DNA of 64,000 bases. Source: Owenia fusiformis. Lineage: Eukaryota. A program made the translations under genes and the position numbers. Under the pieces are notes generated by a model. The model searched no databases. It was not told the DNA's origin and was given only the letters and a program-made list of their open reading frames with translations. The stretch lies in assembly GCA_903813345.2 (NCBI GenBank), contig CAIIXF020000001.1, forward strand, positions 1,488,001 through 1,552,000. The letters run 5' to 3'. Below are positions 3,105-33,160 of this stretch, one piece after another. The first letter of the stretch is position 1. The number at the start of each line of letters is the position of its first letter.

Positions 3105-3797
3105 TATTTGCAATGGTTTTTTAAGTTAATATATTTTGCACTGTGTATTGTGGAATATTTTTGATAATTAAAAACGTTCATCTTTTATTTGATAAATGGC
3201 GGAAAATTTGACTTATTTGAAAAAAATTATCAAAAATTTCCCATATAACTTTCAAAGTCATAATATAGTAAATGAATGATAAAAACATATTTTCAAACTT
3301 AAGATATAATGATAATTCATGATGAACCAGTGAAAAAGTAAACTGAATAATAATTATATTATAATTATCACGGGTTGTCATTGAAAGATATGTCCAGCTT
3401 TGGTCACGATTTTCGGACTGCAACCAAAAATTGCCGAAAATGCTACAAAGAATTTCATTCATTGGTTCAAAAGTACCACCCACTCGCCCACACGATATAA
3501 ACATTTTCATTTGCATTCATATCAATGTAACATTTAAAATCTGAGTTGACATTTCTTCAAAATTAATCTGCATTATATATACTTCTTTCAGAATATTACA
3601 CATGGAAGAGTTCTACCTATTTTCCTTGGTTGGTGGACAAAAAGTTTATTTATTTTGTGCATCATTTTTTACAATTTGATCAGTTTTACTATTTTCAAAG
3701 TCTTCTTAGATTATATCATGATATATTATCATGATGAAGGGGTTATACTAAATTTCATGAAGGGGACAGTTGTTTTAGATACGTAACTTCATCTCAC

Positions 3798-4091
3798 CTT
3801 TACAAGTAGTCGCTCGACGGAAGAGCAAGGTGGTTCCAAAATCGTCAACTCGTATAAAGTACAAGATTTTGAGCTCTTTAAATACGACATCGCGGTGCAG
3901 CCAAGTGTTTCGAAGCATGTCCGTGCACATTTAAGTCTGCTTACGCCATGTAATTGAAACTGGATTGCAGATGCCAGTGTTGCGCCATCAGCGCATACAT
4001 CTTTGCTTTCAAAATCCCCATTTAGTACATTTGTGCCGTCTGTATTATTAGCAAAACATAATAAAACAATTACAAACAAAAACGCTTCCAT
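3798..4091 (-). CDS. Exon 1 of a secreted PAN/Apple-domain protein
   Basis: Hydrophobic signal peptide (MEAFLFVIVLLCFANNTDG), then SRLKCARTCFETLGCTAMSYLKSSKSCTLY = C-x3-C-x5-C...C-x-L-Y PAN pattern; ends at donor AAG|GTGAGA (phase 0). Confidence 0.7.
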
Positions 4092-5024
4092 GGTTACCGG
4101 TTCATCAAATTCCCCCGACTATATAATGACATCCCAAAGCCGACTGTCATCTAACATTCCCATGTTGCCAACTATAAGTTGCCCACTATAGGTTCTTTAG
4201 TCCCCATCGATTATATTCTTTCTTTCCATACGGGACGTGTAATTACTCTTAACATTGTGATTTGAATATGATCGAAATTCGAAACCGAGGCAAAAATAAG
4301 CTTAATCACACAAGTTTAGTTGATAAAACACGAAATGTCGTTTACTTTACTTCAAATATAGATTCGCTTCGTTTTCTAAGGATTGTCAACGTTATTACCC
4401 AGCGGGCATAAATCAGGTAGATTTCCTAATATGGTCCATATAGTTGAAATAATTACTCTCAAGCTCCACTTGAGATGCTGAAGGATATAGGTATTGTTTA
4501 CTATTGGCGCTGAACTCACAATTTTTTTCACTTGGCACCTTTTGAGGTGGATCCCGGCTATGATCATCACATGATATATCAATAAAGTTTTAAACAGATT
4601 CAACCTTCAACCAACACTTTTTGATAACTCATGAAATAAAGTCACTTTCAAAGATCTTAATATGGAAGTCAATGGAAGTCTGGCCCAAGAAAAAATCTGA
4701 ATAAAAGATGGTAGCACTGGTTTTCATTCATTTTTCAGCTATTTAGAAACTATCTTATTCATAACCTCATTACAACGTGCATTTTACCGAAGAGTATAAA
4801 CCGATGCGCGTTATACCAAAAACCATTACAACGAAGTGAAAACATATTTTTGAAGTTAAGCCAGGTGTAAAAGGGTAGAAGGTCCTATATGGCGACCTAA
4901 ATACAACTCCTTCCCTTATTATCTTATACGCAATCAGGGCCAGTAAGGGCCGTTAAGAAAGGGGACCATAATCCCTGGGGGACCATCATTTCTTTCACAC
5001 CGGTATACACCAATTGCGCAAAAT

Positions 5025-11627: not shown

Positions 11628-11819
11628 TCAATCATCTTTCAAAGCATTAATTTTTGCACATATTTTCAAAGCAGGGCCAAGTTTTATGTTCATGGTTGTC
11701 ATAAGGTGGTCTTCCTTGAGTAAAAGCAGAGCTTGGCCATCTATCTCTTGAGAACGGAACTCATCAGCGTATGTTTCACAACCTGGGAGAGAGTGGATGA
11801 ATTCATAAACTTCACGGAC
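11628..11819 (-). CDS. ph: Polyhomeotic last exon, SAM domain
   Basis: VREVYEFIHSLPGCETYADEFRSQEIDGQALLLLKEDHLMTTMNIKLGPALKICAKINALKDD*; typical Ph/Scm SAM; acceptor ttgcag at 11820-11825. Confidence 0.95.
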   Translation of the reverse strand, partial: VREVYEFIHSLPGCETYADEFRSQEIDGQALLLLKEDHLMTTMNIKLGPALKICAKINALKDD

Positions 11820-14800
11820 CTGCAATAGAAATACAATAAAGTAAAATAAAGTAATATACAATATACAATGACACTTTACATTTATTAGTTAATATCAATT
11901 AGTGCAGCATCAGAAAACTAAAAGAAGACTTCTTTTTTGTATTTGTATTTGTATTTGAATTGTATTTTTGTTTGTTGTCAATACTGCATTTGTTGTATTA
12001 CATTGTATTACTGTTCTTATGTTTAGAATCAATAATGGACATGATGACTAGTTCTGAAAACTAATTCAGAAAAAATACAGAACAAAACACCACCACTCAA
12101 ACCATATTTCTTACCGTCCACCTAGTTGGCTGTGGCATATTCTCTCTGTTTGTGTCTCGTGTTGGCTCAGCATCGGCTGGAGGTCTGTCTTCATCATCCA
12201 TCATGTCAACATCAACTGCAGGGTCAGATTCTGCAGGTGAGTTGGAGCTCTCATCGTGGTCCTCCTGGAGGGACGAAATACAAAGATAAAGAAACATTCA
12301 GATAATTTTGTTTAATAACAGCAAAAATATTTTTTCAATACACATCAATATGTGTATAACTGCTGTGTTTCGCTTATCAAATGCGCAATTATAATTCCCC
12401 TTATGACAGGTATTATGTACCCGATTCTTTAGTAAGTACAAACACAAAATACTTAACGACTCAAGGCCAAATCTAATACAGTCATTCTGAAATGACGGTA
12501 GGAAATCTGCATTGAAGTGAGAGCTACCTACCTGATGTCCTTGCTCTGTAATGCCACTGGTCTCTGTTGTTTCAGATGTGGTTGATTCAGTCTCCTGTTC
12601 ACCACTGCTGCTACTGGCATCTCTTTCTGCATCCACTGCCTTCTACAACATACCATTTTTGTGCACTGAAGCAATACAGTGAGGTCAGAGTCCAACATGT
12701 TTTACTAGTATTCAATAAAGTTTCAAGTATCATAATACTCATTCAAAGTGTGCTTTTTAGCATTGACATTATTCTCTTTTGGATGCTTTGTGGGTTTTAT
12801 TATCTATAGTCATCATTGATTAAGAGAGGATGAATTCTAAATATTATGACAATGTTTTGGGGCTGATTCCACAGTTTTCCTAGTGTTGTCCTTTGCATTT
12901 TCTGGCCATAAATCATACATACAGATTTAATGCATGTCATAATTCAGAAGCTCACAAGAAAATGCAGGAAAAGATTGGGAATTCAAGAATCATCTTCCTG
13001 AGCACTGAATAATTCATAAACATCAATAACAGAGGTGGATGGCATGCTTTGGAAAGTAAAAATATATATATCACCAAACTCAACTCTTCAATATGCTGAG
13101 TGTAATAAGTCTCTCATTCATCCAAAATATTCAAAATATGATTTTATCTTCTATTTTTTACCTTTTCAAGGTTAGCAGTGTCCACATTGCTCTGATTTGG
13201 GTCTGTCTTCCCATCAATTTTCCCAGAGATAGGGCTTTTGGAACCCCTCGGCTTTTTTACTCGCTTCACTGAAATACAGAATGCATAAGTTAAACATAAG
13301 TTAATATAATTAAATTTATGATGTAATCTAAAGAAGACATTTTTCCATCAAACTCAGGCCCAAAATATTTTTTCTTACATTGTTAAGGCCAGCTGGTTTG
13401 TCAAGAGCGTTTTTTAGAAAAAGGTTCAGATTTGAATTTCGTATTAAGTCAATATCAATGGTAGATTCCAAAAGTTGTTATCGATCTGAAACTGAAATGT
13501 TCTTGCGTCTCTCAGAACAACATCAGTTGAATATATTAAGTGAAAATCAGCAAAATGCCAATAGCATGCAAAATGTGGCAATTGTACTAATAAATATTAT
13601 AGACTTTTAAAAAGAAATGAATAAATCATAAGTGACCTATTTAACAAATAGACAGGAACTAAGTCTAAAAATGAATAAAATCTTTATCTGCTATTCATGC
13701 CTTATATTTAAAATACTTATGGTCTACTAATGTGCACATTCCTAAACCCTAACCATACAAAGCCCCCAAACTAACACAGAAATATGGAAATATAAGTTGT
13801 ATTTGGCTTTAGACCTGTGAATTTCTTCATATATGTTTGCGGTAATATTACAAAATCTGTAGGATTTACACATGTCCTGAAATGTGTGAACATCCAAGTG
13901 GGACTATGTCAGTTTAAATACAATGACATCAAGCTGTGAGGCTTTGCCATGAGGAGAGAATCAGGGGAATGGTCGATATTGCTACTTAACTGTGGCCTTA
14001 CCTTACTCACTTCGAGAGCCATGTTAGATTTTGAAACTTATGGCGACTCCAATGGAGAAATGGACAGCTGAATAATAGTGACCTTTGAAACTTGAAACAC
14101 GAATTAAGTCGATCAGTTGTTTTCTAACTATGTCATACATCATTATCATCCTTCCGTGCAAGTATTGGAGCGCTGAAGTACTTCCTTTTCGATCAAGACT
14201 TGTAATTGTTAGTCAAGTGAATGTTTTTTCTGCCAAATTCCAATATGATGTTTTCTACTCTGACATTTTTCATAAATCTCTGGAGGTTGTCCGAACCTAA
14301 TTCATTCTCAAAATTCATTTTGTTCATTGCGTATCTCGCTCCTAGCAAACTGCCATATTGGAAATGGGTCGAAAAAACATTCACTCGATGAACAATTTAC
14401 AAGTCTTGATCGAAAAAAGAAGTAATTCAGCGCTCAAATACTTGCACGGATTGATGATACTGATGTAAGACACAGTTAGAGACAAAAAGTAAGTCGCGGA
14501 TCTCATTATTCATGTTTTAAAGGTCACTATTATTCAGCTGTCCAAGTGCGCTGTGGGAAAGATATTATATCAAAATCCACATAGCTTTCGCAGGAAGTAA
14601 GCCTTACAAACCAACCAACTTGACATAACATGCAATTTTGAGATAACTTCTCCCTATTCTGCTATAACTTAACCAAGGTGCAAACATGTATATTGTGTAC
14701 GTACTCTAAAGCAGGACTTTAAAACACAATGATGAACCATGTACATATACGGGACAGGGAACATACAATTGACAAGTGCATGGCCTATTTGGTACAACAA

Positions 14801-17800
14801 AATTAGACAAAACGGTACACAAACAGGATCTCAAAAATATCATGGTGATGAAGAAATTAAACATGTTTGAAAAGGTAATTTGTAGTGTCCTATATAGTAA
14901 CTGCAATCCTCATAATCTTCAAAATGCCCTTCACAGTTAACATACTATGGTAGGTATTTATTAGAATTGTAGAGTAATGTTTGGGGATCCATGTATCTGC
15001 TCATTTGTTTATTTGTTTGATTGTTTGGACATATCATCTTAGATCATAAAATCTTGAGGTTATCAGTCTTAATAAAGGGTCAAAGGTCGATGTTCAGATG
15101 TGCCCAGCATGGCTTGGGTCAAACATTGTGACTTAATATATTTCTGAATGAATCCAATAAAATTTGATCATCACCATGACATTTCATACATGATTTATAA
15201 CCATAATTTTCATGAACCCACTACACGTGCTACACAAATGACTAGCTCGGGACTGACACAGGCATTTGCATTCTCATTTAACCCCAAAACTATGTGAAAC
15301 AAGTACATGAACACCTGACAACTTGTTTTCCAAATAAGAGTTTCAGGTACAGATTCAATCTGTCTTCCTTTGAACTTAAAATACACCAAAAATAATAAAA
15401 TTCAGAACTCCATGTAAATTGCACCATCAACAGATTTTGATACAAAACATCATGTCTATACATTGTATATTAAAGTTGGAAAAATGCTCAGCTATTGAGC
15501 AAATTAAAGGCTTTTAAAAATATATGAGGAGCACATCTTCATTCACTTGTCTCAAATCAGTGGCAGTGAACGCAGTTAAGACCAATGTGCAAAGATGTGA
15601 GAAGCATGCATATCGTTCGATCATTGATTTTCAAACTTAGGTTGCACAAATACTAATTTTATCAGGCTCTACAATAAGAGTCTATTGAAGATGCAATTTA
15701 TAAGTCGTTATGATTTTAAAATCTGAAAGTATTTTAGGATGTATATGGAGGATGAGCCACACTGAATGAGAAGACACCACCAAAACACTCACCAGTCAGG
15801 CGACTTAGGCCCCATAACTTTGGGGGTCGACCTCGTCGCCGCTTAATTTCTGAATTCAAGATAACATACTAGTTCAACTCTTATTTCTCAACACTACATC
15901 ATTAGAACCTATTTTTGATGGCAGTTAAGTTACCAGTTTGCCATGCATATCTTAATATATAATATTATAGTTCACTGTTATAATATTGTCTCAGAATACT
16001 GTATAAGTGGTAATTTTGCCTAATCATTTAATTTGCCTATTTCCTAATTTTTGCCAGGTTCGGAAAATTAAATGTCGGAAATATTGTCTTTATAATGTTA
16101 TCCAATGGGAGGTTTCTTGTCATTAGGAAAATTAAAATTAGGAAAATGATGAAATTTGACCATTCGGAAAATTAACCACTCGGATTAAATACCACTTATA
16201 CAGTAGTCCATTTTTGATCACCATGGAATTTCATGTAAAATTAATTTGCATTGTTCTTTATAGATTAGTTATCTGGGCGAAATAGCTATAAGTTTTTTTA
16301 ATCCGATTTTTTTATATTTTAACAATGCTAGACATTTCCTAATCCAGTAAAAATTACAAACAAAATTTTGTTGATCTTCGAACTGGTCAACATACCCTAG
16401 AAAGATCAAAAATGAACTATTTAAACATCGAAGTGAGAGAATAAGATTAGTAACAGTTAGAAAAGAACACCTAGTGAATTATAGAGAACTCAACAAGATG
16501 ATAAGAACCCAACTACATTGATAGTCATACCTTGATCAGGCTGGAAGAGTCCCATGCGTCGAGAACAGCCCACATTGTAGCGTTTAGCACAGGCAGTGGT
16601 GCAGAACCTCTTCGACCTCTTAAACAACTTTGCCATCATGACGCGGCCACAGAACTCACACTTCAAAGTAGGGCCATCACTACGATCTAAAAGGACAGCT
16701 TGGTTTTAAAAAAAATTACATTATGACATCATTAAATCAAATTAAATACCAGTAAGAGCTTTTATGACTTATTATGAATATGGGGTTACTGTACTTTGAA
16801 GTGAAATAAACCCTTTTAAACCATCGGCAAATATGGTGTATTAGCAAGTCTCAATCTCGTAATATTGGGGGAAAACAGAATATGTTTCCCCCTACCCTTC
16901 CCAAACATTACATCTTTGAAGGGAATATGAATATTTTAAAAATAATAGATGATTTCTGAAGTAAAATAGATGAATGAGAGAGATTGACTTCACCTTGCTG
17001 ATTATATTCACTATTAATAAGTGATTCTAAATGCTATATGCCTCCATTTTAAATGTACACAATCTTATCTATTGGGTCCTATACTAAAGTAAGGCATAAT
17101 ACCAACCAAATAAAACACAGATTCTACATATAGCGACACAAACCAAACCAAAAGTGTACACTTGATTATATTGAATAATAAATATCAATCACTATCATAA
17201 CAAAATACATTTTAATTTTGTTTAAGCTCATAACAAAAAAACACCATGCTTATTCAATAGGAAGACATTCTACACACATATAGAATCAAAAATGGATAAC
17301 AATGACACATTCATGACAGGTTGGTTAGGTGAATGCACAAAAACTAATTTTCAGTATACTATTAAATGTGTGTAACAATTAGGCAAATACAAATGTGAGA
17401 CCCAGTGGAATTATCTAAGGTGTAAAGAAATTTAAAGGGACACATCCCATGCATCGTGATATCACGCACACTTACTCCTATTTCTATGGTGGGCTGAGAG
17501 CCTATGTAATATTGCTGCAATATGGATAAGCAGTAAGTATATAATGTTAAATCCCATTAGAATCAAGTGGAAATACAGAACATTTTCACACATACTAGTT
17601 TTCTGCATGAAAACACCAGTTTCAGATGACAAATTGCATGAAAACACCAGTTTCAGATGACAAATTGCATGAAAACACCAGTTTCAGATGACAAATGGCT
17701 GTCTAAGGTGTCAAGGGGAGTGACAAATTTGAGACGAGATGGTTGTCTGGAAAAAATCTAGTTTTTAGAGAAATTAAGTGCAAAAAATCAAATTCTGACA

Positions 17801-20800
17801 AAATTTTGAAAACCAAAATTCTGCGGTTTTTCTGCAGCAAAGCTGGAATTCTAGTATGTGTGCATTTTATCTTACTGTTTTTATCATAATTGATGGACAC
17901 TTATAACTGAAGTTATTATCTGAAACTCTAGTTAATATAAAACATATAAGTATCACTGAAGGTTATAAAATGTCTCAATTTATGCAGCAAGAACCTGTAA
18001 AATATGCATTAAGTGAGAATCTCCCTTATATGAGTATGTTATTATAATAAACCCAACTGTGTTCACTATACACAGGTTTTACTGTACTGGTCTTGGAAAT
18101 TTTAAACTGTTTAATGGAGCATGAAGCACAGTATAAGAGAGTAAAGGGGGTATGTAGTTGTTACCTGTTGCTCTGGCAGAAAGGACTGGTTCCTCCCTGG
18201 CTATCTTACTGGGAGGACCTCCATCTGATTTGCTCTTCTCACTGAATGGCTTCTGAGGAGGCTAAAAACACAATATATATAACTTTACATAACAAAATTC
18301 TTGTAAGAGATCCTTATATAAGCCAGAAAAAAACATTAGGATTTTGTCAAGCTTGTCAATGAGCTGCCTTATGAATAAACTCATATCTGAAGTCTTTTCA
18401 GTTTGCACATATAGAGCACTGGTAATTATCTAATTACAAGTATACAAACTTTTACACAAACTACATCATCAAAACTCAACACACTCACTGGAAAAGGATC
18501 GGGTCCTTCTTGTATAACAAAGCCCTCTATTACATGTGTTAGCACCTGCGGTTTGACTATGGCTTTCTGGCGCTCCCCTTGAACAATGGCAGTAGGTGGA
18601 CCTGAGGTTGAGACATTCGTCAGACTGACAACCTTGTCTTCTAAATTAGAGAAACACAAATAGTAATATTATGGCATGGAAGGTACTTTTTCAATTACTT
18701 TTTCAAAACATTTTTAATTAAGGGAATATAGTTTTGATTCTCATCCTATAACTAATCCTAATAACACCAAATGTTTTTTAATTCATGACGATGTAACTCA
18801 CATATAAATCAACATATCTGAACATAAACCTCCTTTTCTGATTATAATCAAAGCTTAAAAAATCCTGATTTGCAAGCAGTACAAGTTACAAATTGAAAAA
18901 CTGATTGCATCTTTTAAAACTTCAAAAGACAATAAATACATTTCCTATATGAACATTTCTTAATTAACCTTATTGACAAAAAAATGTTTTTTTCCAATTC
19001 TATTCAATTTGATTGTGATTGTGTAAGTAGAAGTAACAGCAGACCAGAAAACATATAAAAATGGGTGTATTAGACGCAATGGTCAAGATTGCCAACAAGC
19101 ACATTCATATCAAAGGGCTGCATATGGTATAGTGTTTCCATTAAACTTCTACTTACCAGTTGGTGAGGCTGTTGGAGATGGAATTATATCATTATCAACT
19201 TCCATATTCTCTTCTTTATCACCAGATGACTCTGAATGTCCATTCACTGAAATATCTCCATTCGTTTTTACTTCATCGTTTATCTTATCATTACCATTTA
19301 ATTTCACATCTTTATTACTATTAATCAATGTTTTTTTACTTTGAGATTTATCTCCTCCCTGATGCTGTTTATTGTCAGAAGACGATAATGATTCAGAGCT
19401 ACTGGCGCCATCTGGTTTTGAACCAGAGTCTGATGATGCATCAGAAGATGTTGCAGGTTTAATATGTGAAATAGTCTTTTTTGAAGTGACTGGTGTAGAC
19501 AGTGGTGAAGTAATGTTTGTCGGAGGTTTACTTTGAGTAGACCCCTTTGGGCTAGTTTGTCTGATTTTGGATCCTCCCATTACTGGCTTACTGCCTGTAG
19601 ATGGTTTCGTGCCAATTGTTGTAGGTTTTGTACCACTTGGTGAAGGTTTTGGACCACTCATTGTAGGTTTTGAACCAGTTGGAGTTGATTTTGTTCCACT
19701 TGTGCTAAGTTTTGGACTACTTGTAGATTTTGAACCGACTGTAGTAGGTTTTGAACCATTTGTAGAAGGTTTCACACTCTGTGGTTTTGAGGCTGTAGTT
19801 GTGGTCTTACTTGACATTGTACTAGGTTTTGTAGTCACAGCTTGTGTTAGTTTAGTCCCAGTTACAGTTGCTGTTGCAACACTTGGTTTGGCCATTTGGC
19901 GTCCACGTACCTTCTGCACTTGTTTAGGCAAAATATGCTGTGCAGTTGTACGTGGTTTGGTCCCAGGGGTGCCAGCTGGAGGGGTCTGGGGTTTAGTTAT
20001 AGCTGCCTGAGGGGAGTTGACAACCTGTGTAGTTGTAGTGACTTTATTGTTGTTGCCTGCCTTGTTAGCAGAGGCCAGCAGCGCAGATATGCTTTTATTA
20101 CTGGAGCTGAGGGATCCAGTGGATTTGGCACCAGATCCTGTGACTTTGCCCACAGTGGCTGGATTAGTTGGCCTGACTCCCTGCTCAACTGCCACTTTGG
20201 CTCCTTTAGTGGCCTGATTGGGCATATTTTGGACCATGCACGCATGGTGAGTCTGCATGGGGCCTGCTGCACGGATAAACATTGGTGCGTTGGTTAGAAT
20301 AGTTGGGGACTGGGTGCCAATCAACTGCTGTGGTGCTATGGGGATATTCTGACCAAACTGCGCCATTGCTTGTAATTGATTTAACACTGTGGGGCTAGTG
20401 ATCATTGTTGGCTGGTTAGGCTGCGTCACCAGCTGTGCAGGGTTAGAAAGTCTGATCTGGCCAGGACTGAGAATTTGATTCTGAGTGGAGCTTGCTTGGC
20501 TTCTGATGGCATTTGATCCATTGTTCTGATTGGCTGACATTGAGCCTGGTGGCACAGAGGTCTGTACACCTATCATAGTACCTGCAAGGTTAAATAAATG
20601 GGGGATATAAAATATATATATTTGTGATACAGAGATCTGTTAAGAGTACCAGTGCAAAATCTACATCTATTGCTTTTTAAAAGTTTAAATCTACAACTAT
20701 TGCTTAAACTCAAATAAATTTCTTTTTTGGTGATACCATTTTTATCATGATAGCTAGGTCACTATTTGGAATCCTTGATAATGAGTATTTCTTCAAATCC

Positions 20801-23800
20801 AGGTAGCTAAGTTCCTTAATGCATCTGAATGACCTACCAAGTTGTTGTATGAAGAAAGGCTGTGACTGTTGAGCCATATTGTGAGGCTGACTTCCTTGAC
20901 GTTGTATCATTGCTTTCCCCATCATATTGGCAGGCATACCTAGACGAAGATTGTTAATAAGAATAACATATCAGTTTATCAAAGGTAATTATATGACCAA
21001 GGGCGATTTCCCCTGACGCTCTTATACTGTTTATGCATGTCACAGTACTTAATAGACCTTCACATATATAGAATATATCTGGTTAAGAGAATATACCTGG
21101 ATGAGCTAGCATCACTTGAGGCTGGATATGTGTAGGTTGGCTTCCATTTGGAGATTTTGTGTTATTGGACTTTGTAGGACTGGCAGTGGCTGATCCTGGA
21201 GAACCTGCTGGTGGCCCTCCATTTGGAGATTTGGCAGACATCTATAATAAGGAACATACATCCTTCTTAACTGAGTCATACATTAACAATAAGGCAAAAA
21301 ATTGTAAACTGTAATGGTTTCACTGAATTTATCTTGAAAACTTTTTTGAAAAATCTACATATTGCTGACATAACTGAAATAGATATGATGTGCCCAGTAC
21401 TTACTTGAACAGTGGTTGGAGATTGTGGTATGGGGGACATCACCCCAGGACTACGTGGGCTCATACCCAATTGCTGACATAATTGAAATAGATATGATGT
21501 GCCCAGTACTTACTTGAACAGTGGTTGGAGATTGTGGTATGGGGGACATCATCCCAGGACTACGTGGGCTCATACCCAATTGCTGACATAATTGAAATAG
21601 ATATGATGTGCCCAGTACTTACTTGAACAGTGGTTGGAGATTGTGGTATGGGGGACATCATCCCAGGACTACGTGGGCTCATACCCAATTGCTGACATAA
21701 TTGAAATAGATATGATGTGCCCAGTACTTACTTGAACAGTGGTTGGAGATTGTGGTATGGGGGACATCATCCCAGGACTACGTGGGCTCATACCCAATTG
21801 CTGACATAATTGAAATAGATATGATGTGCCCAGTACTTACTTGAACAGTGGTTGGAGATTGTGGTATGGGGGACATCATCCCAGGACTACGTGGGCTCAT
21901 ACCCAATTGCTGACATAATTGAAATAGATATGATGTGCCCAATACTTACTTGAACAGTGGTTGGAGATTGCGGTATGGGAGACATCATCCCAGGACTACG
22001 TGGGCTCATACCCAATTGCTGACATAATTGAAATAGATATGGTGTACCCAATACTTACTTGAACAGTGGTTGGAGATTGCGGTATGGGGGACATCATCCC
22101 AGGACTACGTGGGCTCATACCCAATTGCTGACATAACTGAAATAGATATGGTGTACCCAGTACTTACTTGAACAGTGGTTGGAGATTGTGGTATGGGAGA
22201 CATCATCCCAGGACTACGTGGGCTCATACCCAATTGCTGACATAATTGAAATAGATATGGTGTACCCAATACTTACTTGAACAGTGGTTGGAGATTGCGG
22301 TATGGGAGACATCATCCCAGGACTACGTGGGCTCATACCCAATTGCTGACATAATTGAAATAGATATGATGTGCCCAATACTTACTTGAACAGTGGTTGG
22401 AGATTGCAGTATGGGGGACATCATCCCAGGACTACGTGGGCTCATACCCAATTGCTGACATAACTGAAATAGATATGGTGTACCCAGTACTTACTTGAAC
22501 AGTGGTTGGAGATTGCGGTATGGGGGACATCATCCCAGGACTACGTGGGCTCATACCCAATTGCTGACATAACTGAAATAGATATGGTGTACCCAGTACT
22601 TACTTGAACAGTGGTTGGAGATTGCAGTATGGGGGACATCATCCCAGGACTACGTGGGCTCATACCCAATTGCTGACATAATTGAAATAGATATGGTGTA
22701 CCCAGTACTTACTTGAACAGTGGTTGGAGATTGCGGTATGGGGGACATCATCCCAGGACTACGTGGGCTCATACCCAATTGCTGACATAACTGAAATAGA
22801 TATGGTGTACCCAATACTTACTTGAACAGTGGTTGGAGATTGCAGTATGGGGGACATCATCCCAGGACTACGTGGGCTCATACCCAATTGCTGACATAAT
22901 TGAAATAGATATGGTGTACCCAGTACTTACTTGAACAGTGGTTGGAGATTGCGGTATGGGGGACATCATCCCAGGACTACGTGGGCTCATACCCAATTGC
23001 TGACATAATTGAAATAGATATGGTGTACCCAGTACTTACTTGAACAGTGGTTGGAGATTGCGGTATGGGGGACATCATCCCAGGACTACGTGGGCTCATA
23101 CCCAATTGCTGACATAATTGAAATAGATATGATGTGCCCAGTACTTACTTGAACAGTGGTTGGAGATTGCGGTATGGGGGACATCATCCCAGGTCTACGT
23201 GGGCTCATGCCCAATTGCTGACATAATTGAAATAGATATGGTGTACCCAGTACTTACTTGAACAGTGGTTGGAGATTGCGGTATGGGGGACATCATCCCA
23301 GGTCTACGTGGGCTCATGCCCAACTGCTGACATAACTGAAATAGATATGATGTGCCTAGTACTTACTTGAACAGTGGTTGGAGATTGCGGTATGGGAGAC
23401 ATCATCCCAGGACTACGTGGGCTCATGCCCAACTGCTGACATATTTGAAATAGATATGGTGTACCCAGTACTTACTTGAACAGTGGTTGGAGATTGCGGT
23501 ATGGGGGACATCATCCCAGGACTACGTGGGCTCATACCCAATTGCTGACATAATTGAAATAGATATGGTGTACCCAATACTTACTTGAACAGTGGTTGGA
23601 GATTGTGGTATGGGGGACATCATCCCAGGACTACGTGGGCTCATACCCAATTGCTGACATAATTGAAATAGATATGATGTGCCCAATACTTACTTGAACA
23701 GTGGTTGGAGATTGTGGTATGGGGGACATCATCCCAGGACTACGTGGGCTCATACCCAATTGCTGACATAATTGAAATAGATATGATGTGCCCAATACTT

Positions 23801-26800
23801 ACTTGAACAGTGGTTGGAGATTGTGGTATGGGGGACATCATCCCAGGACTACGTGGGCTCATACCCAATTGCTGACATAATTGAAATAGATATGATGTGC
23901 CCAATACTTACTTGAACAGTGGTTGGAGATTGTGGTATGGGAGACATCATCCCAGGACTACGTGGGCTCATACCCAATTGCTGACATAATTGAAATAGAT
24001 ATGATGTGCCCAGTACTTACTTGAACAGTGGTTGGAGATTGCGGTATGGGAGACATCATCCCAGGACTACGTGGGCTCATACCCAATTGCTGACATAATT
24101 GAAATAGATATGGTGTACCCAGTACTTACTTGAACAGTGGTTGGAGATTGTGGTATGGGGGACATCATCCCAGGACTACGTGGGCTCATGCCCAATTGCT
24201 GACATAATTGAAATAGATATGGTGTACCCAATACTTACTTGAACAGTGGTTGGAGATTGCGGTATGGGGGACATCATCCCAGGACTACGTGGGCTCATAC
24301 CCAATTGCTGACATAATTGAAATAGATATGGTGTACCCAATACTTACTTGAACAGTGGTTGGAGATTGCGGTATGGGGGACATCATCCCAGGACTACGTG
24401 GGCTCATACCCAATTGCTGACATAATTGAAATAGATATGGTGTACCCAGTACTTACTTGAACAGTGGTTGGAGATTGTGGTATGGGGGACATCATCCCAG
24501 GACTACGTGGGCTCATACCCAATTGCTGACATAATTGAAATAGATATGATGTGCCCAGTACTTACTTGAACAGTGGTTGGAGATTGCGGTATGGGGGACA
24601 TCATCCCAGGACTACGTGGGCTCATACCCAATTGCTGACATAATTGAAATAGATATGATGTGCCTAGTACTTACTTGAACAGTGGTTGGAGATTGCGGTA
24701 TGGGGGACATCATCCCAGGTCTACGTGGGCTCATGCCCAACTGCTGACATAATTGAAATAGATATGGTGTACCCAATACTTACTTGAACAGTGGTTGGAG
24801 ATTGCGGTATGGGGGACATCATCCCAGGACTACGTGGGCTCATACCCAACTGCTGACATAATTGAAATAGATATGATGTACCCAATACTTACTTGAACAG
24901 TGGTTGGAGATTGTGGTATGGGGGACATCATCCCAGGACTACGTGGGCTCATACCCAATTGCTGACATAATTGAAATAGATATGATGTGCCCAGTACTTA
25001 CTTGAACAGTGGTTGGAGATTGTGGTATGGGGGACATCATCCCAGGACTACGTGGGCTCATATCCAATTGCTGACATAATTGAAATAGATATGATGTACC
25101 CAATACTTACTTGAACAGTGGTTGGAGATTGTGGTATGGGGGACATCATCCCAGGACTACGTGGGCTCATACCCAATTGCTGACATAATTGAAATAGATA
25201 TGATGTGCCCAGTACTTACTTGAACAGTGGTTGGAGATTGTGGTATGGGGGACATCATCCCAGGACTACGTGGGCTCATATCCAATTGCTGACATAATTG
25301 AAATAGATATGATGTACCCAATACTTACTTGAACAGTGGTTGGAGATTGTGGTATGGGGGACATCATCCCAGGACTACGTGGGCTCATACCCAATTGCTG
25401 ACATAATTGAAATAGATATGATGTACCTAGTACTTACTTGAACAGTGGTTGGAGATTGCGGTATGGGGGACATCATCCCAGGACTACGTGGGCTCATACC
25501 CAATTGCTGACATAATTGAAATAGATATGATGTACCTAGTACTTACTTGAACAGTGGTTGGAGATTGCGGTATGGGGGACATCATCCCAGGACTACGTGG
25601 GCTCATACCCAATTGCTGACATAATTGAAATAGATATGATGTGCCCAATACTTACTTGAACAGTGGTTGGAGATTGCGGTATGGGAGACATCATCCCAGG
25701 ACTACGTGGGCTCATACCCAATTGCTGACATAATTGAAATAGATATGATGTGCCCAATACTTACTTGAACAGTGGTTGGAGATTGCGGTATGGGAGACAT
25801 CATCCCAGGACTACGTGGGCTCATACCCAATTGCTGACATAATTGAAATAGATATGATGTGCCCAGTACTTACTTGAACAGTGGTTGGAGATTGTGGTAT
25901 GGGAGACATCATCCCAGGACTACGTGGGCTCATACCCAATTGCTGATATAATTGAAATAGATATGATGTGCCCAGTACTTACTTGAACAGTGGTTGGAGA
26001 TTGTGGTATGGGGGACATCATCCCAGGACTACGTGGGCTCATACCCAATTGCTGACATAATTGAAATAGATATGATGTGCCCAGTACTTACTTGAACAGT
26101 GGTTGGAGATTGCGGTATGGGAGACATCATCCCAGGACTACGTGGGCTCATACCCAATTGCTGACATAATTGAAATAGATATGATGTGCCCAGTACTTAC
26201 TTGAACAGTGGTTGGAGATTGTGGTATTGGAGACATCATCCCAGGACTACGTGGGCTCATCCCCAACTGCTGACATAATTGAAATAGATATGATGTGCCC
26301 AGTACTTACTTGAACAGTGGTTGGAGATTGTGGTATGGGGGACATCATCCCAGGACTACGTGGGCTCATACCCAATTGCTGACATAATTGAAATAGATAT
26401 GATGTGCCCAGTACTTACTTGAACAGTGGTTGGAGATTGTGGTATTGGAGACATCATCCCAGGACTACGTGGGCTCATCCCCAACTGCTGACATAATTGA
26501 AATAGATATGATGTGCCCAGTACTTACTTGAACAGTGGTTGGAGATTGTGGTATGGGGGACATCATCCCAGGACTACGTGGGCTCATACCCAACTGCTGA
26601 CATAATTGAAATAGATATGATGTGCCCAGTACTTACTTGAACAGTGGTTGGAGATTGTGGTATGGGGGACATCATCCCAGGACTACGTGGGCTCATACCC
26701 AATTGCTGACATAATTGAAATAGATATGATGTGCCCAGTACTTACTTGAACAGTGGTTGGAGATTGCGGTATGGGAGACATCATCCCAGGACTACGTGGG

Positions 26801-29800
26801 CTCATACCCAATTGCTGACATAATTGAAATAGATATGATGTGCCCAGTACTTACTTGAACAGTGGTTGGAGATTGTGGTATTGGAGACATCATCCCAGGA
26901 CTACGTGGGCTCATCCCCAATTGCTGACATAATTGAAATAGATATGGTGTGCCCAGTACTTACTTGAACAGTGGTTGGAGATTGCGGTATGGGAGACATC
27001 ATCCCAGGACTACGTGGGCTCATACCCAATTGCTGACATAATTGAAATAGATATGATGTGCCCAATACTTACTTGAACAGTGGTTGGAGATTGCGGTATG
27101 GGGGACATCATCCCAGGACTACGTGGGCTCATACCCAATTGCTGACATAATTGAAATAGATATGATGTGCCCAGTACTTACTTGAACAGTGGTTGGAGAT
27201 TGTGGTATGGGGGACATCATCCCAGGACTACGTGGGCTCATGCCCAACTGCTGACATAATTGAAATAGATATGATGTGCCCAGTACTTACTTGAACAGTG
27301 GTTGGAGATTGTGGTATGGGGGACATCATCCCAGGACTACGTGGGCTCATGCCCAACTGCTGACATAATTGAAATAGATATGGTGTACCCAATACTTACT
27401 TGAACAGTGGTTGGAGATTGTGGTATGGGGGACATCATCCCAGGACTACGTGGGCTCATGCCCAACTGCTGACATAATTGAAATAGATATGATGTGCCCA
27501 GTACTTACTTGAACAGTGGTTGGAGATTGTGGTATGGGGGACATCATCCCAGGACTACGTGGGCTCATACCCAATTGCTGATATAATTGAAATAGATATG
27601 ATGTGCCCAGTACTTACTTGAACAGTGGTTGGAGATTGTGGTATGGGGGACATCATCCCAGGACTACGTGGGCTCATACCCAATTGCTGATATAATTGAA
27701 ATAGATATGATGTGCCCAGTACTTACTTGAACAGTGGTTGGAGATTGTGGTATGGGAGACATCATCCCAGGACTACGTGGGCTCATACCCAATTGCTGAT
27801 ATAATTGAAATAGATATGATGTGCCCAGTACTTACTTGAACAGTGGTTGGAGATTGTGGTATGGGGGACATCATCCCAGGACTACGTGGGCTCATACCCA
27901 ATTGCTGATATAATTGAAATAGATATGATGTGCCCAGTACTTACTTGAACAGTGGTTGGAGATTGCGGTATGGGGGACATCATCCCAGGACTACGTGGGC
28001 TCATACCCAATTGCTGACATAATTGAAATAGATATGATGTGCCCAGTACTTACTTGAACAGTGGTTGGAGATTGCGGTATGGGGGACATCATCCCAGGAC
28101 TACGTGGGCTCATACCCAATTGCTGACATAATTGAAATAGATATGGTGTACCCAATACTTACTTGAACAGTGGTTGGAGATTGTGGTATGGGAGACATCA
28201 TCCCAGGACTACGTGGGCTCATACCCAACTGCTGACATAATTGAAATAGATATGATGTGCCCAGTACTTACTTGAACAGTGGTTGGAGATTGTGGTATGG
28301 GGGACATCATCCCAGGACTACGTGGGCTCATACCCAACTGCTGACATAATTGAAATAGATATGATGTGCCCAGTACTTACTTGAACAGTGGTTGGAGATT
28401 GTGGTATGGGAGACATCATCCCAGGACTACGTGGGCTCATACCCAATTGCTGATGGTTTAACCCCTGCATGGCTGCTACAAAACAATACATCAAACAATA
28501 CAAACATTTTATGAATATTCACATTTTTTCACCTAATAAAAATATTTACAAATGAAAAGTAAAGGCTGTAGTAAATATTATTAAATATATAGCTTATCAT
28601 TTCTGAATTAGTATCAAGCCCTCTGTTTCACAGTCTTTGTTATTATTTGTACAAAACAAATATCAAAATTTAGGCAATCATTTCACCAGTTCTGTAATAC
28701 CGTTGCTATACTGTACAAAGAGAATTCAGAGCAACATGTTATATAGATACATTAATCAATAATTTACAGTGCAATTAATCAAATAATTATTTCTGTTTTG
28801 TTTTATGTGCATGACCTGTCTATGACCACCAGACAATACATATTACAAGCATAACTCATAAACTGATGGCTCTCTCTTATATTCTAACTTATAAGCCACT
28901 ACAGTATCTTATATTTTTACTTATATGCCATGGAACACAGCCTCCAAAATCAGTTTTCCTTCCAAATAGGTTTCTTGTTTGATATGTGAATGGACTGCAA
29001 TGTTATCATTGGAATATCCTTTTTCTGTTTTGGGAATGTACAAAAGAGAGGTATAAAAATCGAAATTTGCCAATTTATCGATCGGGGGGTAGAAATTGAT
29101 TTTCTACTGTAAATACAAGAAAATATTCAGCTTGATATTCAATACTTCAAATTCAGGACGCACAATAAAACCTGTGTAACGGAACACCTTTGTTACGGTG
29201 TTACCTCTAAAAAGTGACTCACTTTCATAGGTCCATTTAGCATTAAGTTAAACAATAGCCTTTCACTTACAGAGGTGTTCTACAAGTACTTTATATGTTT
29301 TAGTGTACCTGAATTGATGTTAAATGTGTAATGAGCCTTTCAACTATTCAATAGCAGTCTTGATATTTTTAGAATAAATAGAGCAGATTTAAAAGATGAA
29401 AATTTGCTCATTTTTGCCCCCCCCCCCCCCCTCCCCCTCCTTATACAATATGTGACACAAAAATGGATATCTGTATCTACAAAAATTTGATTTCTTCATT
29501 TTTTCACATCTACAATTATCACAATTAATGCTATTGCAAGAAATGCTTGACTTTGGCAAATATTTGAATGATGCATGTACATGTACTTGCCTTAGCCTAG
29601 TTATTGACTTACCCATTGCATTCTGTAGCATGATCTGCTGGTTATAGAGTTGCTGTAGATACGCAGTTGAACTTACTGCCATAGGCTGTTGAATCACTTG
29701 TACAGTTTGACCCATAGGTGGGCGGATCGTGTTATCTAACAAGGCTGCATGACTTGCATTCATTGCAATAGCTCCAGTTGATGGTATAGATCCTTGTACA

Positions 29801-30345
29801 TGTATAGTTCCTTGTGGTGTATGGGATAATGCCCCTTGTTGTACAGCCCCTTGTGCTTGAAGGATTGTCCCCGGGGGCATACTTGTACCCTGCGGTAGGC
29901 TACTCTGGGGTATGGATGTCTGACGCTGTACGTTAGGTGGGTGAAGGTTTGGCTGCATTTGATGCTGTTGTTGCTGCTGTTGTATTTGTTGACCATTTTG
30001 CTGCTGTTGAATAAGCTGGTGCTGTGGAGCATTTTGCTGCTGTTGCTGCTGTTGAATTTGCTGGTTATTTGGTTGTAGATGTTGAACTACTTGCTGGTCA
30101 TTCTGTAATTGTTGTTGGCCAGGGTGCTGGTTGTTTTGCTGTTGCAGTTGGTTTGTTTGCTGGTTGTTTTGCTGTGCCTGAAGCTGTTGTTGGTTGTTTG
30201 GCTGTGGTTGACTATTTTGCTGTTCTGGTTGTGCTGGGGGTGTTGTCACTGGTGTAGGGGGATGGGACGGTGGTTTAGGGGGATTCTGGGTTGGAGGGGG
30301 TGGGGTGGGCTGGGCCGATGGTGGTTGTTGGGGCGCCTCAGACAT
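11628..30345 (-). CDS. ph: Polyhomeotic-like protein (PRC1 subunit), 13 coding exons, ~1173 aa
   Basis: Hand-built exons (minus): 30345-29613, 28475-28381, 21241-21097, 20939-20838, 20581-19157, 18640-18489, 18261-18165, 16686-16531, 15849-15793, 13268-13162, 12642-12532, 12264-12115, 11819-11628. All introns are GT-AG and phase-compatible (total 3522 nt). Encodes a P/Q-rich N-terminus, an S/T/K-rich region, HD1 (KPQVLTHVIEGFVIQEGPDPFP), an FCS finger (CEFCG...KRSKRFCTTACAKRYNVGC) and a C-terminal SAM domain. Exon 15849-15793 is the least certain. Confidence 0.93.
14002..14601. mobile_element. 600-bp fold-back element in a ph intron
   Basis: Long imperfect arms (ggacagctgaataatagtgaccttt / aaaggtcactattattcagctgtcc; gatcaagacttgta / tacaagtcttgatc); flanked by the direct repeat CCTTAC (13996-14001, 14602-14607). 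Confidence 0.85.
15793..15849 (-). CDS. 57-nt symmetric (phase 1-1) exon encoding an AT-hook-like motif, in the Polyhomeotic gene
   Basis: ttcag|(G)AA ATT AAG CGG CGA CGA GGT CGA CCC CCA AAG ... ACT G|gtgagt = EIKRRRGRPPKLWGLSRLT; a GC-rich island in an AT-rich intron, in frame with both neighbouring exons. Confidence 0.7.
15997..16205. mobile_element. MITE with TACTGTATAAGTGGTA...TACCACTTATACAGTA ends
   Basis: 16-bp perfect TIR including the TA; internal ggaaaattaa repeats. Confidence 0.8.
16531..16686 (-). CDS. ph: Polyhomeotic FCS-type zinc finger exon (missed by the ORF track)
   Basis: Translates as DRSDGPTLKCEFCGRVMMAKLFKRSKRFCTTACAKRYNVGCSRRMGLFQPDQ; ttttag acceptor, gtatga donor, phase 1-1. 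Confidence 0.93.
17604..17696 (+). repeat. 31-bp tandem repeat x3
   Basis: tgcatgaaaacaccagtttcagatgacaaat at 17604, 17635 and 17666. Confidence 0.95.
18489..18640 (-). CDS. ph: Polyhomeotic HD1 exon
   Basis: KAIVKPQVLTHVIEGFVIQEGPDPFP matches the Ph homology domain 1; tttag acceptor, gtgagt donor. Confidence 0.93.
21361..28453 (-). repeat. Tandem array of ~65 x 109-bp units duplicating the exon-2/intron-2 junction of Polyhomeotic
   Basis: The 'ttgaac' anchor recurs at 21405, 21841, 21950 ... 28381 (6976 = 64 x 109), with no net length change. Sense unit: GTAAGTACTGGGCACATCATATCTATTTCAATTATGTCAG + CAATTGGGTATGAGCCCACGTAGTCCTGGGATGATGTCCCCCATACCACAATCTCCAACCACTGTTCAA. Confidence 0.98.
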
Positions 30346-33160
30346 CTCAAGGGCCTCTATTTCAGGCACAAACTGAAACAAAAATCACATACATAATCAC
30401 AACATGTACAAAAATGCCGACTTATATCACATTTCTATCAATAGCAAATTATCAAAATTAGATAGATGGTTTAAGGAAAGAATATCCTATGATTACGAGT
30501 GATATCATTTACAAATCAATGGAAGAAGCGATATCTGTGGAATATTCTCCATGTTTCATATAGCTACAGTATATTACTTTTTCCATGCATTTGAAAAATA
30601 TCATCAAAATACATGTTATAATACAGATTAGACCTAAACTATGGAATAACTTTAGATATGCATAGTTCTCTAACAGATATCTAGTAAGCTTTCTTATGAG
30701 TTTCTGGATTTTGACTTTGAAGACCTGCAATACAAAAACAAGGCAGAGAAGTCTAAAGAACAGCTGCTGAGATTTTCACGATACAATGCCATCAATGGAT
30801 AACATTTTTTATAAAATTGGTTTGAAAATACTGGCTGTCCTAATTTTTCAACATGATTTCATTTTAAACGACTTTTTACCATTCTTACAAAATATTGCCT
30901 GTCAAATGATGATGTCTACATAAGATATATTATAAAATGTATGCCTTGGGGAAATTCTTCGAACAAACATGTTCAACTTCCTTAAAGGGACTTAATCAAG
31001 TTATATTCAATATAAAATGTACATGTATAAGAAAAAATCAAAAATCACACATCACTGTAAAAAATACTAGAGAGGACCAAAAGTATCTGCTCTAACAGAT
31101 ATTGCCTCTTTAACAACATGTATATATTTCATTTAAAACTAACTTTAAGTGAATCACCTATGTTATTTTCACTTGTAAACGATTAAATATGAATAATAAT
31201 AAAAAGAACACAAATACTATACTCACTCTGTAATTTACAACTACATCTTCATACCACATATTTGCAGGAATACAAAAATGCAAGAATATATCTCATATCC
31301 TTCCCTCACAGTAAGTAAATCCAGGACAAATTGAAGTTATCTGATGTGTAATCTATACCATACAACTGACATGAACGTAGTAGTGCAACCAATCCATCTA
31401 CACTTGACTCAGAAAACTGGCCTTTTGAGAAATATCAAATAAATATTCATTTTTGAAAGAAAAAATGTCTAACTAATGACTTTACAAGTCAAGCATGTCT
31501 TAAAATCTTTACTGCCTTCTGTTCATATGGCTGACACTTTTGTTTAGCAATCATGCCATTTGTAATTCACATATTTCTAAAATTCATAAACATAATATAT
31601 CATTTCCCACTCATAAAACACAACACAAAAATGAAAGCCTATCCTGTCTGTACCAAGTCCAATTGTCTTTTATGACCCTGAACACCAAGTCTTTAACTAC
31701 AAACATACCAATTTTGACCAGTTCTTCTTATTAAAGACATCATAAAACTCACCCTCATAAAATCTGTACCAGTGTTCTAAGTTCGCCAATGCTCCCGGGG
31801 AACTTAGGTATAAGAAATGAAGATTTATGGTCAGTTTGAAGCCACTGATTTTATGCTGCAACTGTTGTGGTTAACCACTGGTTAACATTTCCTGTGAGTT
31901 TTTCAGTCAAAAATTCCCAAGTGCTACAGTATCTGCTTTGCATCTTATTTCATATAGGAATGTGTTAGACTTTCAAGTGGACCTCTAATTTTTTATTTCA
32001 CGTAAATGTAATAATATACTGTTTTGATCCTTTTGATAGTTGATACATAACTGCTCCTGTAACCAGTGCTATGAATAGAAAACTGCTTGTAAAGATTAAT
32101 GACAAAATGTAAAACGCCATTTCATATGCAAACTTCTTGAAGTCATTCTCAAACAACTTTTAGAATACAATCCATCATGTCATCATCTTCCAAAGTTAAA
32201 GTTTGAGATAATTGATGTCTCCTGATCTTTTCCACCTCATTGAGTTAGTTTACATATCAATGACTGGGGTCCCTTACATAAATACACATCCCCCAAACGA
32301 AATTTAAATAACTCATATTTCAAATATGGATAGATGGATTGATACACATTTTATTTGCTGCCTTACATTTGCTCCTACTACTGAACTCCGATCAATTAGT
32401 ATCCGTTTTTACAAGGGATGGTTTTTCCATCCAGACCAGTTAGTGTTGTACATTGGCAGTTTTTCTGATGAGCAGACTATGATTTTTGTGAAAATAAATT
32501 TTCAGTGTGAGATAAAAGAACTTCACAGTGACAAGTATAACAATATAAAGTATTGCTCCATTATGCTAATCATATCTTCAGTCATTATTTGTAATGTACA
32601 TTTGCTCTATTGACCATTTGTTCAACAACAATCCTAGCCCCATTATCATAACAGGCACATAATGCACATTATCTGCACCAAACTTAAAAGGATAATTTAT
32701 GTGATTTTGGGAGCTGTCAAGTCAGCCTGAACTATTGAATCAAAACTGCAAACTGAACAAATGTGAGGATCTAATCATAAGATTCCATAATTCTCTATAA
32801 CCACCCAATTCTGCCTTGAGTTTATATTGCAAATGGTTCATGTTTTTCCAAGTATGGAGAGCATTACTTTGTATCTTTTATAATAGTAGACATGCAAACG
32901 GAATGGCTTTGGTACCTCAAAATAGAGTTCTATTTGGGTTAAATTTATAATACTTTGAAAAGTGTTCAGTTCCACTTATAGGGGTGCTCCATTTACAAAG
33001 GCTTTTACCTTTACAGGTCTTACTACAACAAGATATTTCTTTAGTTTTATTTTGTGTCATCTACCTTTAGGATCTCTATCTCTATGATGAGACATCACTG
33101 ATTGCCCATGAAGAGAAACCAACTACCTTTTTCAAAAAGAATTAAAAAAATAAGACCAAA

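Follow-up and report, generated by a model that had tools for sequence, protein, structure and literature searches.

Does a tandem array of exon-like copies inside a gene supply additional exons to its mRNA, or does it leave with the intron in which it lies? This question is raised by the polyhomeotic homologue of Owenia fusiformis, which we analysed in a window of 64,000 nucleotides (the whole stretch at positions 1,488,001 to 1,552,000 of contig CAIIXF020000001.1, assembly GCA_903813345.2). All coordinates below are those of the window. Intron 2 of the gene contains a 109-bp repeat in 65 units, and a preliminary description of this DNA had proposed, as its main reading, that the 64 extra copies may be working cassette exons, which would serve as a dial for the length of the Polyhomeotic disordered region. 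Our results favour another answer, to which we give a probability of roughly 0.7: the array is an intronic minisatellite, its first monomer is the real exon 2/intron 2 junction of O. fusiformis polyhomeotic, and it is essentially silent.

Tandem Repeats Finder reported one array at 21361-28453, with a period of 109, 65.1 copies, 97% matches, 0% indels and a score of 13045, and the tandem repeat scan returned no other sizeable array in the 64-kb window. Read on the minus strand, each unit consists of a 69-nt block, GTAAGT and the remainder of a 40-nt spacer that ends in TCAG. Between 28380 and 21404 there were 65 GTAAGT sites on this strand, and the spacing was exactly 109 nt in 64 of 64 intervals. 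The block was free of stop codons and stood directly upstream of GTAAGT in every unit (65/65), and all 65 units carried CAA/GTAAGT, i.e. the donor was identically repeated downstream of the authentic one. The blocks begin with CAA or CAG followed by TTG, and 56 of the 65 encode the 23-residue peptide QLGMSPRSPGMMSPIPQSPTTVQ, while the remaining nine each have one residue changed (three S-to-R, three P-to-L, two G-to-D and one M-to-V). As read from the sequence, QLGMSPRSPGMMSPIPQSPTTVQ contains SP at four sites, and the context is P-x-S-P at two of these. All 65 spacers started with GTAAGT and ended with TCAG, and variation was confined to spacer positions 8, 10, 13, 17, 31, 32 and 36. Unit 0 is the real exon 2 end with its donor, and units 1-64 are pseudo-exon units; the first pseudo-exon lies at 28272-28340 (minus strand, 69 nt, open, phase 0-0) and the last, which carries the private M-to-V change, at 21405-21473 (minus strand). 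The units therefore contain what a cassette exon is made of, namely an acceptor AG, an open body in phase and a donor. In its anatomy of the array, including the number of copies, the form of blocks and spacers and the SP sites, the preliminary description was accurate. A long open reading frame (ORF) spanning the array was considered and rejected, since no frame of at least 90 aa passes through it on either strand and read-through past the exon 2 donor meets a stop after 20 codons. An Rfam scan of 20500-30500 gave no match at the gathering score.

The host gene was identified as a PHC/polyhomeotic homologue by minus-strand frames downstream of the array which matched Pfam zf-FCS_1 (6.9e-08) and SAM_1 (3e-14). 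A search with the large exon matched one protein cluster, "unnamed protein product [Owenia fusiformis]", with four members (CAH1772278-81). We placed the 943-aa isoform P0004 on the window with a script demanding its exact translation, and this gave one solution with GT-AG introns. The resulting model has 13 introns of 1137, 7139, 157, 256, 516, 227, 650, 789, 681, 2524, 519, 267 and 295 nt, and the array sits inside the second, with phase 0 at both borders. Exon 1 (29613-30345, minus strand) is a Q-rich ORF from the ATG at 30345 which ends in phase 1, as indicated by the frame itself, a spliced RNA joint from 28475 to 29613 and the model. Exon 2 (28381-28475, minus strand, 95 nt), defined by the model, the RNA joint and read coverage, is composed of 26 unique nt and the 69-nt block that probably seeded the array. 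The first monomer holds the authentic exon end and donor, as the start of the array at 28453 falls inside this exon (28475-28381). The most upstream GTAAGT, the donor of exon 2, occupies 28375-28380 (minus strand), consistent with loose read ends at 28381 that match the start of exon 3 and with the single-copy isoforms (see below). Exon 3 (21097-21241, minus strand, 145 nt) starts in phase 0 according to the model and the consensus of these loose ends, and 21242-21360 (minus strand), by the sequence and the exact model, is the unique remainder of the ancestral intron and ends in the exon 3 acceptor. The donor, the acceptor at 21241 and phase 0 on both sides had been given correctly before.

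The ends of the array suggest how it may have arisen. Its length equals 65 x 109 + 8 nt, and the extra 8 nt are the direct repeat TCAGCAAT. The upstream copy of this repeat, one end-point of the duplication, lies inside exon 2 at 28446-28453, and the downstream copy lies at 21361-21368, at the 3' border between the array and unique intron sequence (both minus strand). Intron 2, with 7139 nt, equals 163 + 64 x 109; without the 64 extra units it would measure 163 nt, which is near the 157 and 256 nt of its neighbours, and the remaining 12 introns of polyhomeotic range from 157 to 2524 nt. To judge from the sequence, a 109-bp segment, 69 nt from the end of exon 2 with the adjoining 40 nt of a 163-nt intron, would have been duplicated between the pre-existing TCAGCAAT repeats, and unequal exchange or replication slippage would next have raised the array to 64 extra units. 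With a duplication between these repeats, the AG ahead of each block, and the phase of the block, are by-products carried over from its end-point and were not newly built; in exon 2 the sequence is ...CAT CAG/CAA TTG. The copies retain the open frame, the GTAAGT donor and an AG because they are young duplicates of a junction. There were 39 unit types among the 65 units, with a mean pairwise difference of 3.4%. Units at lag 1 had 2.67 differences, compared with 3.5-3.9 at lags 4-12, and runs of like units (RSRSR, PP, QQ, HHHH) were found. Since neighbouring units are more alike and like types stand in runs, local duplication is supported, and the amplification may have gone partly by one- and two-unit steps. 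The second proposal of the preliminary description, that an exon-intron junction was duplicated in tandem, is borne out by the 8-nt repeat that bounds the array and by the 163-nt intron left after removal of the 64 units.

We then turned to RNA for the use of the copies. Three raw RNA-seq runs (X17, X18 and X19) and one contig set (X9) were mapped to 28300-29900, a stretch that runs from the end of exon 1 through intron 1, exon 2 and one spacer into the first copy, of which it takes in 41 nt; exon 3 is outside this stretch and was visible through loose ends only. From 6 to 12% of each raw run was read, and 9, 9 and 42 reads (X17, X18 and X19) and 18 contigs (X9) were mapped. The threshold for listing a junction was 3 reads, so that events with 1-2 reads per run went unlisted. 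The first mate of all reads was on the plus strand, as expected of a stranded library for a minus-strand gene. The joint between exon 1 and exon 2 (28475 to 29613, GT..AG, minus strand) was present in 3, 0 and 10 reads of X17, X18 and X19, respectively, and in one X9 contig, which indicates that X9 holds spliced RNA. At 28381, the loose ends gave a 30-letter consensus that, reverse-complemented, is the beginning of exon 3 (its first 30 nt), with support from 3 reads of X18, 7 reads of X19 and one X9 contig with 255 loose letters. These two, exon 1 to exon 2 and 69-nt block to exon 3, were the only junctions listed on 28300-29900. The predicted copy-to-copy joint (28381 to 28340), for which the preliminary description had recommended a search of RNA-seq, was listed in none of the four RNA sets at this threshold and low depth; its diagnostic motif had 0 matches in the window DNA, in keeping with that description. 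Furthermore, all four annotated isoforms read ...TTVQ/MSAKSP and hold one copy of the motif each.

The depth of the X9 contigs pointed in the same direction. The contig of the unspliced unit (96 nt, 28315-28410) had a depth of 71.4, and the exon 1-2 contig one of 270.5. The three X9 contigs over the block summed to 320.4, about 270.5 + 71.4, and therefore leave no surplus for a second block per mRNA in this rough estimate, depth being a poor measure. In the raw runs, the depth of the unspliced unit in 28300-28353 was 0, 1.28 and 2.61 (X17, X18 and X19). Unspliced array reads were few and in sense orientation only, and intron 1 was nearly empty; as 64 copies collapse onto one place, this signal corresponds to the level of ordinary pre-mRNA. 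Together, these data indicate that splicing links the most upstream of the donors (28380) to the acceptor of exon 3 (21241) and so removes all 7.1 kb of the array along with the intron. That the block joined to exon 3 belongs to exon 2 itself is indicated by the single-copy annotation and by the depth estimate from X9. Use of a NAGNAG at the exon 2 acceptor was also considered, and was dropped, as unitigs overlapping by 30 letters account for the contig ends at 28471.

Several observations weigh against an entirely silent array. Reads joined to exon 3 cannot themselves separate the exon 2 block from a downstream copy, and with the low RNA depth only 10 listed reads cross into exon 3. For the O. 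fusiformis annotation, gene models were derived from RNA-seq by Mikado, Portcullis, Augustus and PASA, as described in the accessible part of PMC9977687; the single-copy isoforms are supportive but weak evidence because such pipelines can lose multi-mapping junction reads. The pyrimidine content of the pseudo-acceptors is within the range of polyhomeotic's real acceptors, and non-adjacent copies are far enough apart for splicing to each other. In addition, two X18 reads on the sense strand consist of a block end, TTATG, and TCAG with a further block, and thus lack spacer nt 1-31. Adding the lengths 39 (the median loose end to exon 3), 73, 5 and 34 gives 151, the read length, and we infer that both reads continue into exon 3, i.e. 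an mRNA with block, 9 nt, block and exon 3. They fit an in-frame cassette of 78 nt. In this respect six of the 65 spacers are of interest, which have G at position 31 and hence TTTCAG, resembling the real acceptor before the exon at 13268. Five of the six precede a block, and each of these gives an open 78-nt exon that encodes LCQ and the motif. The candidate in-frame exons behind the TTTCAG acceptor lie at 23258-23335 (A-to-G at spacer position 31), 22713-22790, 22495-22572, 22386-22463 and 22059-22136, all on the minus strand, and their form is that which the two X18 reads fit. The pair of reads fits canonical splicing to TTTCAG, but it also fits an allele with a 31-bp deletion between two TTCAA repeats, or slippage of reverse transcriptase at this 5-nt repeat, and the two reads may come from one molecule.

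A further point of the same kind is the base before the block, 28450, where 4 of 11 X19 reads had A instead of G. This letter is ambiguous, being either a synonymous CAG-to-CAA single nucleotide polymorphism (SNP) or the letter given by the predicted junction. The SNP is favoured because no matching joint or loose end was listed, and it is plausible because exon 1 shows eight comparable variant places. These eight listed places lie within about 250 nt of exon 1 (29641-29893) and have mixed frequencies in the RNA reads. Moreover, exon 2 reads share silent variants that segregate among the array copies (block positions 39 and 48). These variants suggest that the species is very polymorphic, and perhaps that exon 2 and the array exchange sequence.

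The variation among copies also weighs on the side of use. Synonymous variant classes made up 6 of 10 in the block, compared with 23-26% expected (P 0.014-0.024), and over the whole unit only 4 of 17 classes were non-synonymous or at splice sites, compared with 54-58% expected (P 0.004-0.010). Those four classes occurred in 1-3 copies each, and the others in up to 30 (Mann-Whitney P 0.011). This pattern resembles purifying selection, but it may be explained by variants seeded from the selected real exon, or by chance. The openness of all copies was dropped as evidence of selection, since about 2-3% of single changes would create a stop, and the absence of indels was dropped as well, since roughly 2 were expected and zero is not significant.

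How far can the copies then be regarded as exons? That they work as cassette exons, with variable numbers of 69-nt copies or of the 78-nt form between exons 2 and 3 tuning the length of the Ph disordered region and the number of its SP sites, is in our opinion improbable. All 65 blocks are open, in phase 0-0 and flanked by AG and GTAAGT, five units offer the better TTTCAG acceptor, and the purifying-like variation, the X18 pair and the letter at 28450 would all agree with such use. However, ten reads and one contig joined the block to exon 3 and none of the four RNA sets listed the predicted joint; the X9 depth had no room for a second block, one motif copy was present in each of the four annotated isoforms, and adjacent copies are spaced only 40 nt apart. 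Protein databases also turned up none with repeated motif copies: the N-terminal 130 residues, searched against proteins of similar length, returned the protein itself alone, and residues 1-60, searched against shorter proteins, gave 0 of 24 candidates. A HMMER scan with the 31-aa exon 2 peptide had three matches, which were the protein itself, an unrelated PGPG-rich repeat protein (7 stretches, 41% identity) and a 196-aa low-complexity sequence. The earlier reading of 64 working cassette exons is not supported by the RNA sets, the isoforms or the spacing. Occasional inclusion of a copy is possible, at most as a minor product. A related proposal is that the array is an exon nursery in use, where some individuals, stages or tissues splice in an in-frame unit, perhaps especially one of the five TTTCAG units, under purifying selection on such use. 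If so, selection on copy use would explain why variation avoids amino-acid-changing and splice-site positions; we consider this unlikely, though worth keeping in mind.

Two other explanations do not require inclusion. The array might be a regulatory decoy. Its 64 strong donors, or the pseudo-exons, would then attract U1 and other splicing factors but stay unused, and intron 2 would be removed more slowly or under control, which would determine how much ph mRNA is made. Identical and strong donors in all 65 units, splice-site positions free of variation and the presence of sense-strand unspliced array RNA would suit this role, and decoy exons that promote intron retention are a described mechanism according to the accessible parts of PMC6097662 and PMC7373989. 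However, spread over 64 copies the unspliced coverage is low (about 2.6 on the collapsed array as a whole vs about 10 for exon 2 in X19, and 71 vs 270 in X9), like that of ordinary pre-mRNA, and the missing variation at the 10 splice positions alone is not significant (about 0.11). We therefore regard a decoy function as doubtful and little favoured by the data. It is far less probable still that the tandem structure or the copy number was made by the assembler. The copy number is that given by the assembly, but an independent X9 contig (28315-28410) and raw reads of X18 and X19 run from one block across the spacer and on into the block that follows. Furthermore, 39 unit types with ordered local patterns are unlike a collapsed or inflated repeat, and the public O. 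fusiformis genome was made from PacBio reads with an N50 of 25-30 kb, which exceeds the 7.1-kb array (PMC9977687, in its accessible part). The window probably belongs to that assembly, to judge by its exact match to the annotated protein.

If the minisatellite is essentially silent, the spacing of its units offers a possible reason. Adjacent copies are 40 nt apart, a quarter of polyhomeotic's shortest intron, and all 13 introns of the gene measure at least 157 nt; at this spacing consecutive copies fall short of the gene's introns, while non-adjacent copies would reach them. In human exon clusters, a distance of under 50 bp between donor and branch point was treated as steric interference (PMC5740500, accessible part). 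In the Owenia array, each AG follows a strong donor by only 40 nt and would be too close for a branch site and U2 to fit beside bound U1. Because this spacing would prevent U2 assembly beside bound U1, the pseudo-exons would not be exon-defined. The exon 2 donor alone would be committed, having a working acceptor 95 nt upstream, and a downstream donor used without an acceptor would give an unproductive message, which meets a stop after 20 codons. Recursive splicing, including recursive-splice exons, was rejected as a route, since the junction would read CAA/CAR and regenerate no GT.

The array has four of the characters of a known class, the minisatellites which span an exon-intron boundary: it lies head to tail in an intron, its first monomer holds the authentic exon end and donor, the donor is repeated identically, and the mRNA comes mainly from the most upstream donor, the last at low depth and with the two X18 reads as a possible exception. 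The accessible part of PMC1557585 describes minisatellites with a boundary-spanning first monomer in human F7, IFI6, CBS, LMNB2 and PDGF. The preliminary description had known of no equivalent in ph genes, and in the literature searched this was upheld for ph genes, whereas the kind of repeat is familiar from these five human genes (PMC1557585). For example, in intron 7 of F7 a 37-bp variable number tandem repeat likewise has a boundary-spanning first monomer and an authentic donor followed by identical pseudo-donors, of which the most upstream alone is used. The F7 pseudo-donors were functional though unused, and the choice of donor was tested by mutagenesis (PMC1557585). However, the 37-bp monomer of F7 is present in 5-9 copies, each of which contributes 4 exonic bp, and in the description available it has neither an acceptor nor a complete pseudo-exon. 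In the Owenia array the 109-bp monomer is present in 65 copies, every one of which holds 69 exonic nt in frame as well as an AG, and the donor choice is known from observation at low depth. In IFI6 (6-16) and CBS, a boundary-spanning minisatellite also reiterates the donor, and two proximal pseudo-donors are used as well, resulting in isoforms of different length (PMC1557585). They are the nearest precedent for a length change encoded by a repeat. According to the same partial account, IFI6 and CBS include the extra sequence contiguously through a downstream donor; in Owenia this route stops after 20 codons, and an in-frame product needs an acceptor internal to the array. LMNB2 (100-bp x 10-15) and PDGF (81-bp x 16-18), compared by description, have a similar monomer size and use the authentic donor alone, but their copy number is lower (PMC1557585).

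Other processes share some of these features. In intron gain by tandem genomic duplication (accessible parts of PMC3265369 and PMC4974935), splice signals are also included in a short tandem duplication and the duplicate is removed as an intron; however, a new intron is made there from exonic AGGT, whereas the Owenia array lengthens an existing intron and creates potential exons. Tandem exon duplication, which gives cassette or mutually exclusive exons, has in common with the array in-frame units of similar length with splice sites on both sides. It differs in that the spacing in Owenia is 40 nt, below the steric limit, and no junction reads were found at the listing threshold. The Owenia array differs from the boundary-spanning minisatellites in its scale (65 units), and each of its units is a complete in-frame pseudo-exon. 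Our search found no literature on the Owenia polyhomeotic locus or on a minisatellite in polyhomeotic.

Some further observations concern the gene and its surroundings. The other coding exons of polyhomeotic lie within 11631-20939 (minus strand) by Pfam and the exact model, including the FCS zinc finger at 16686-16531 and the SAM domain in the last exon from 11819; a stretch at 18640-18489 is presumably HD1-like. The four annotated proteins all take 29616, the last ATG in exon 1, as their start. Between it and the ATG at 30345 the frame stays open for about 243 further, Q-rich codons, and RNA reads span 29596-29900 with the depth of an exon and are spliced to exon 2; the annotated models probably lack part of the N terminus. 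The four isoforms in the annotation differ by two genuine cassette exons on the minus strand, 17514-17476 (39 nt) and 15849-15793 (57 nt), the latter encoding a basic RRRGRP stretch. On the gene strand, a perfect 31-nt tandem repeat of 3.0 copies (17604-17696, 100% matches) precedes the 39-nt alternative exon by about 90 nt. The large S/T/K/P-rich exon contains a degenerate coding repeat of 21 nt (7 codons) with 8.2 copies and 68% matches at 19603-19772 (minus strand). Elsewhere in the window we found exons of a pyridoxal-dependent decarboxylase (57831-60871, plus strand; PF00282, 3.5e-22), an ORF with a PAN domain (3789-4118, minus strand) and an open frame of 579 aa with no Pfam match (48235-49974, minus strand).

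The intronic minisatellite of polyhomeotic amounts to a natural competition experiment in a spiralian: a single intron offers 65 identical strong donors together with 64 plausible acceptors, and splicing, on the evidence available, seems to join the first donor to the last acceptor. It extends the human puzzle of splice-site choice to a distant animal and to complete pseudo-exons. It also calls for caution in annotation and read mapping, as junctions into such arrays multi-map and are easily lost. Polyhomeotic is the polymerising subunit of Polycomb repressive complex 1 (PRC1), and its disordered regions are reported to modulate condensate formation (accessible parts of PMC10634872 and PMC7644731). 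If rare in-frame inclusion proved true, this would be exon birth by junction duplication in progress, in this polymerising subunit, and, were the array an exon nursery, the disordered N-terminal part of Polyhomeotic would gain with each inclusion a module of 23-26 residues that carries four SP sites.

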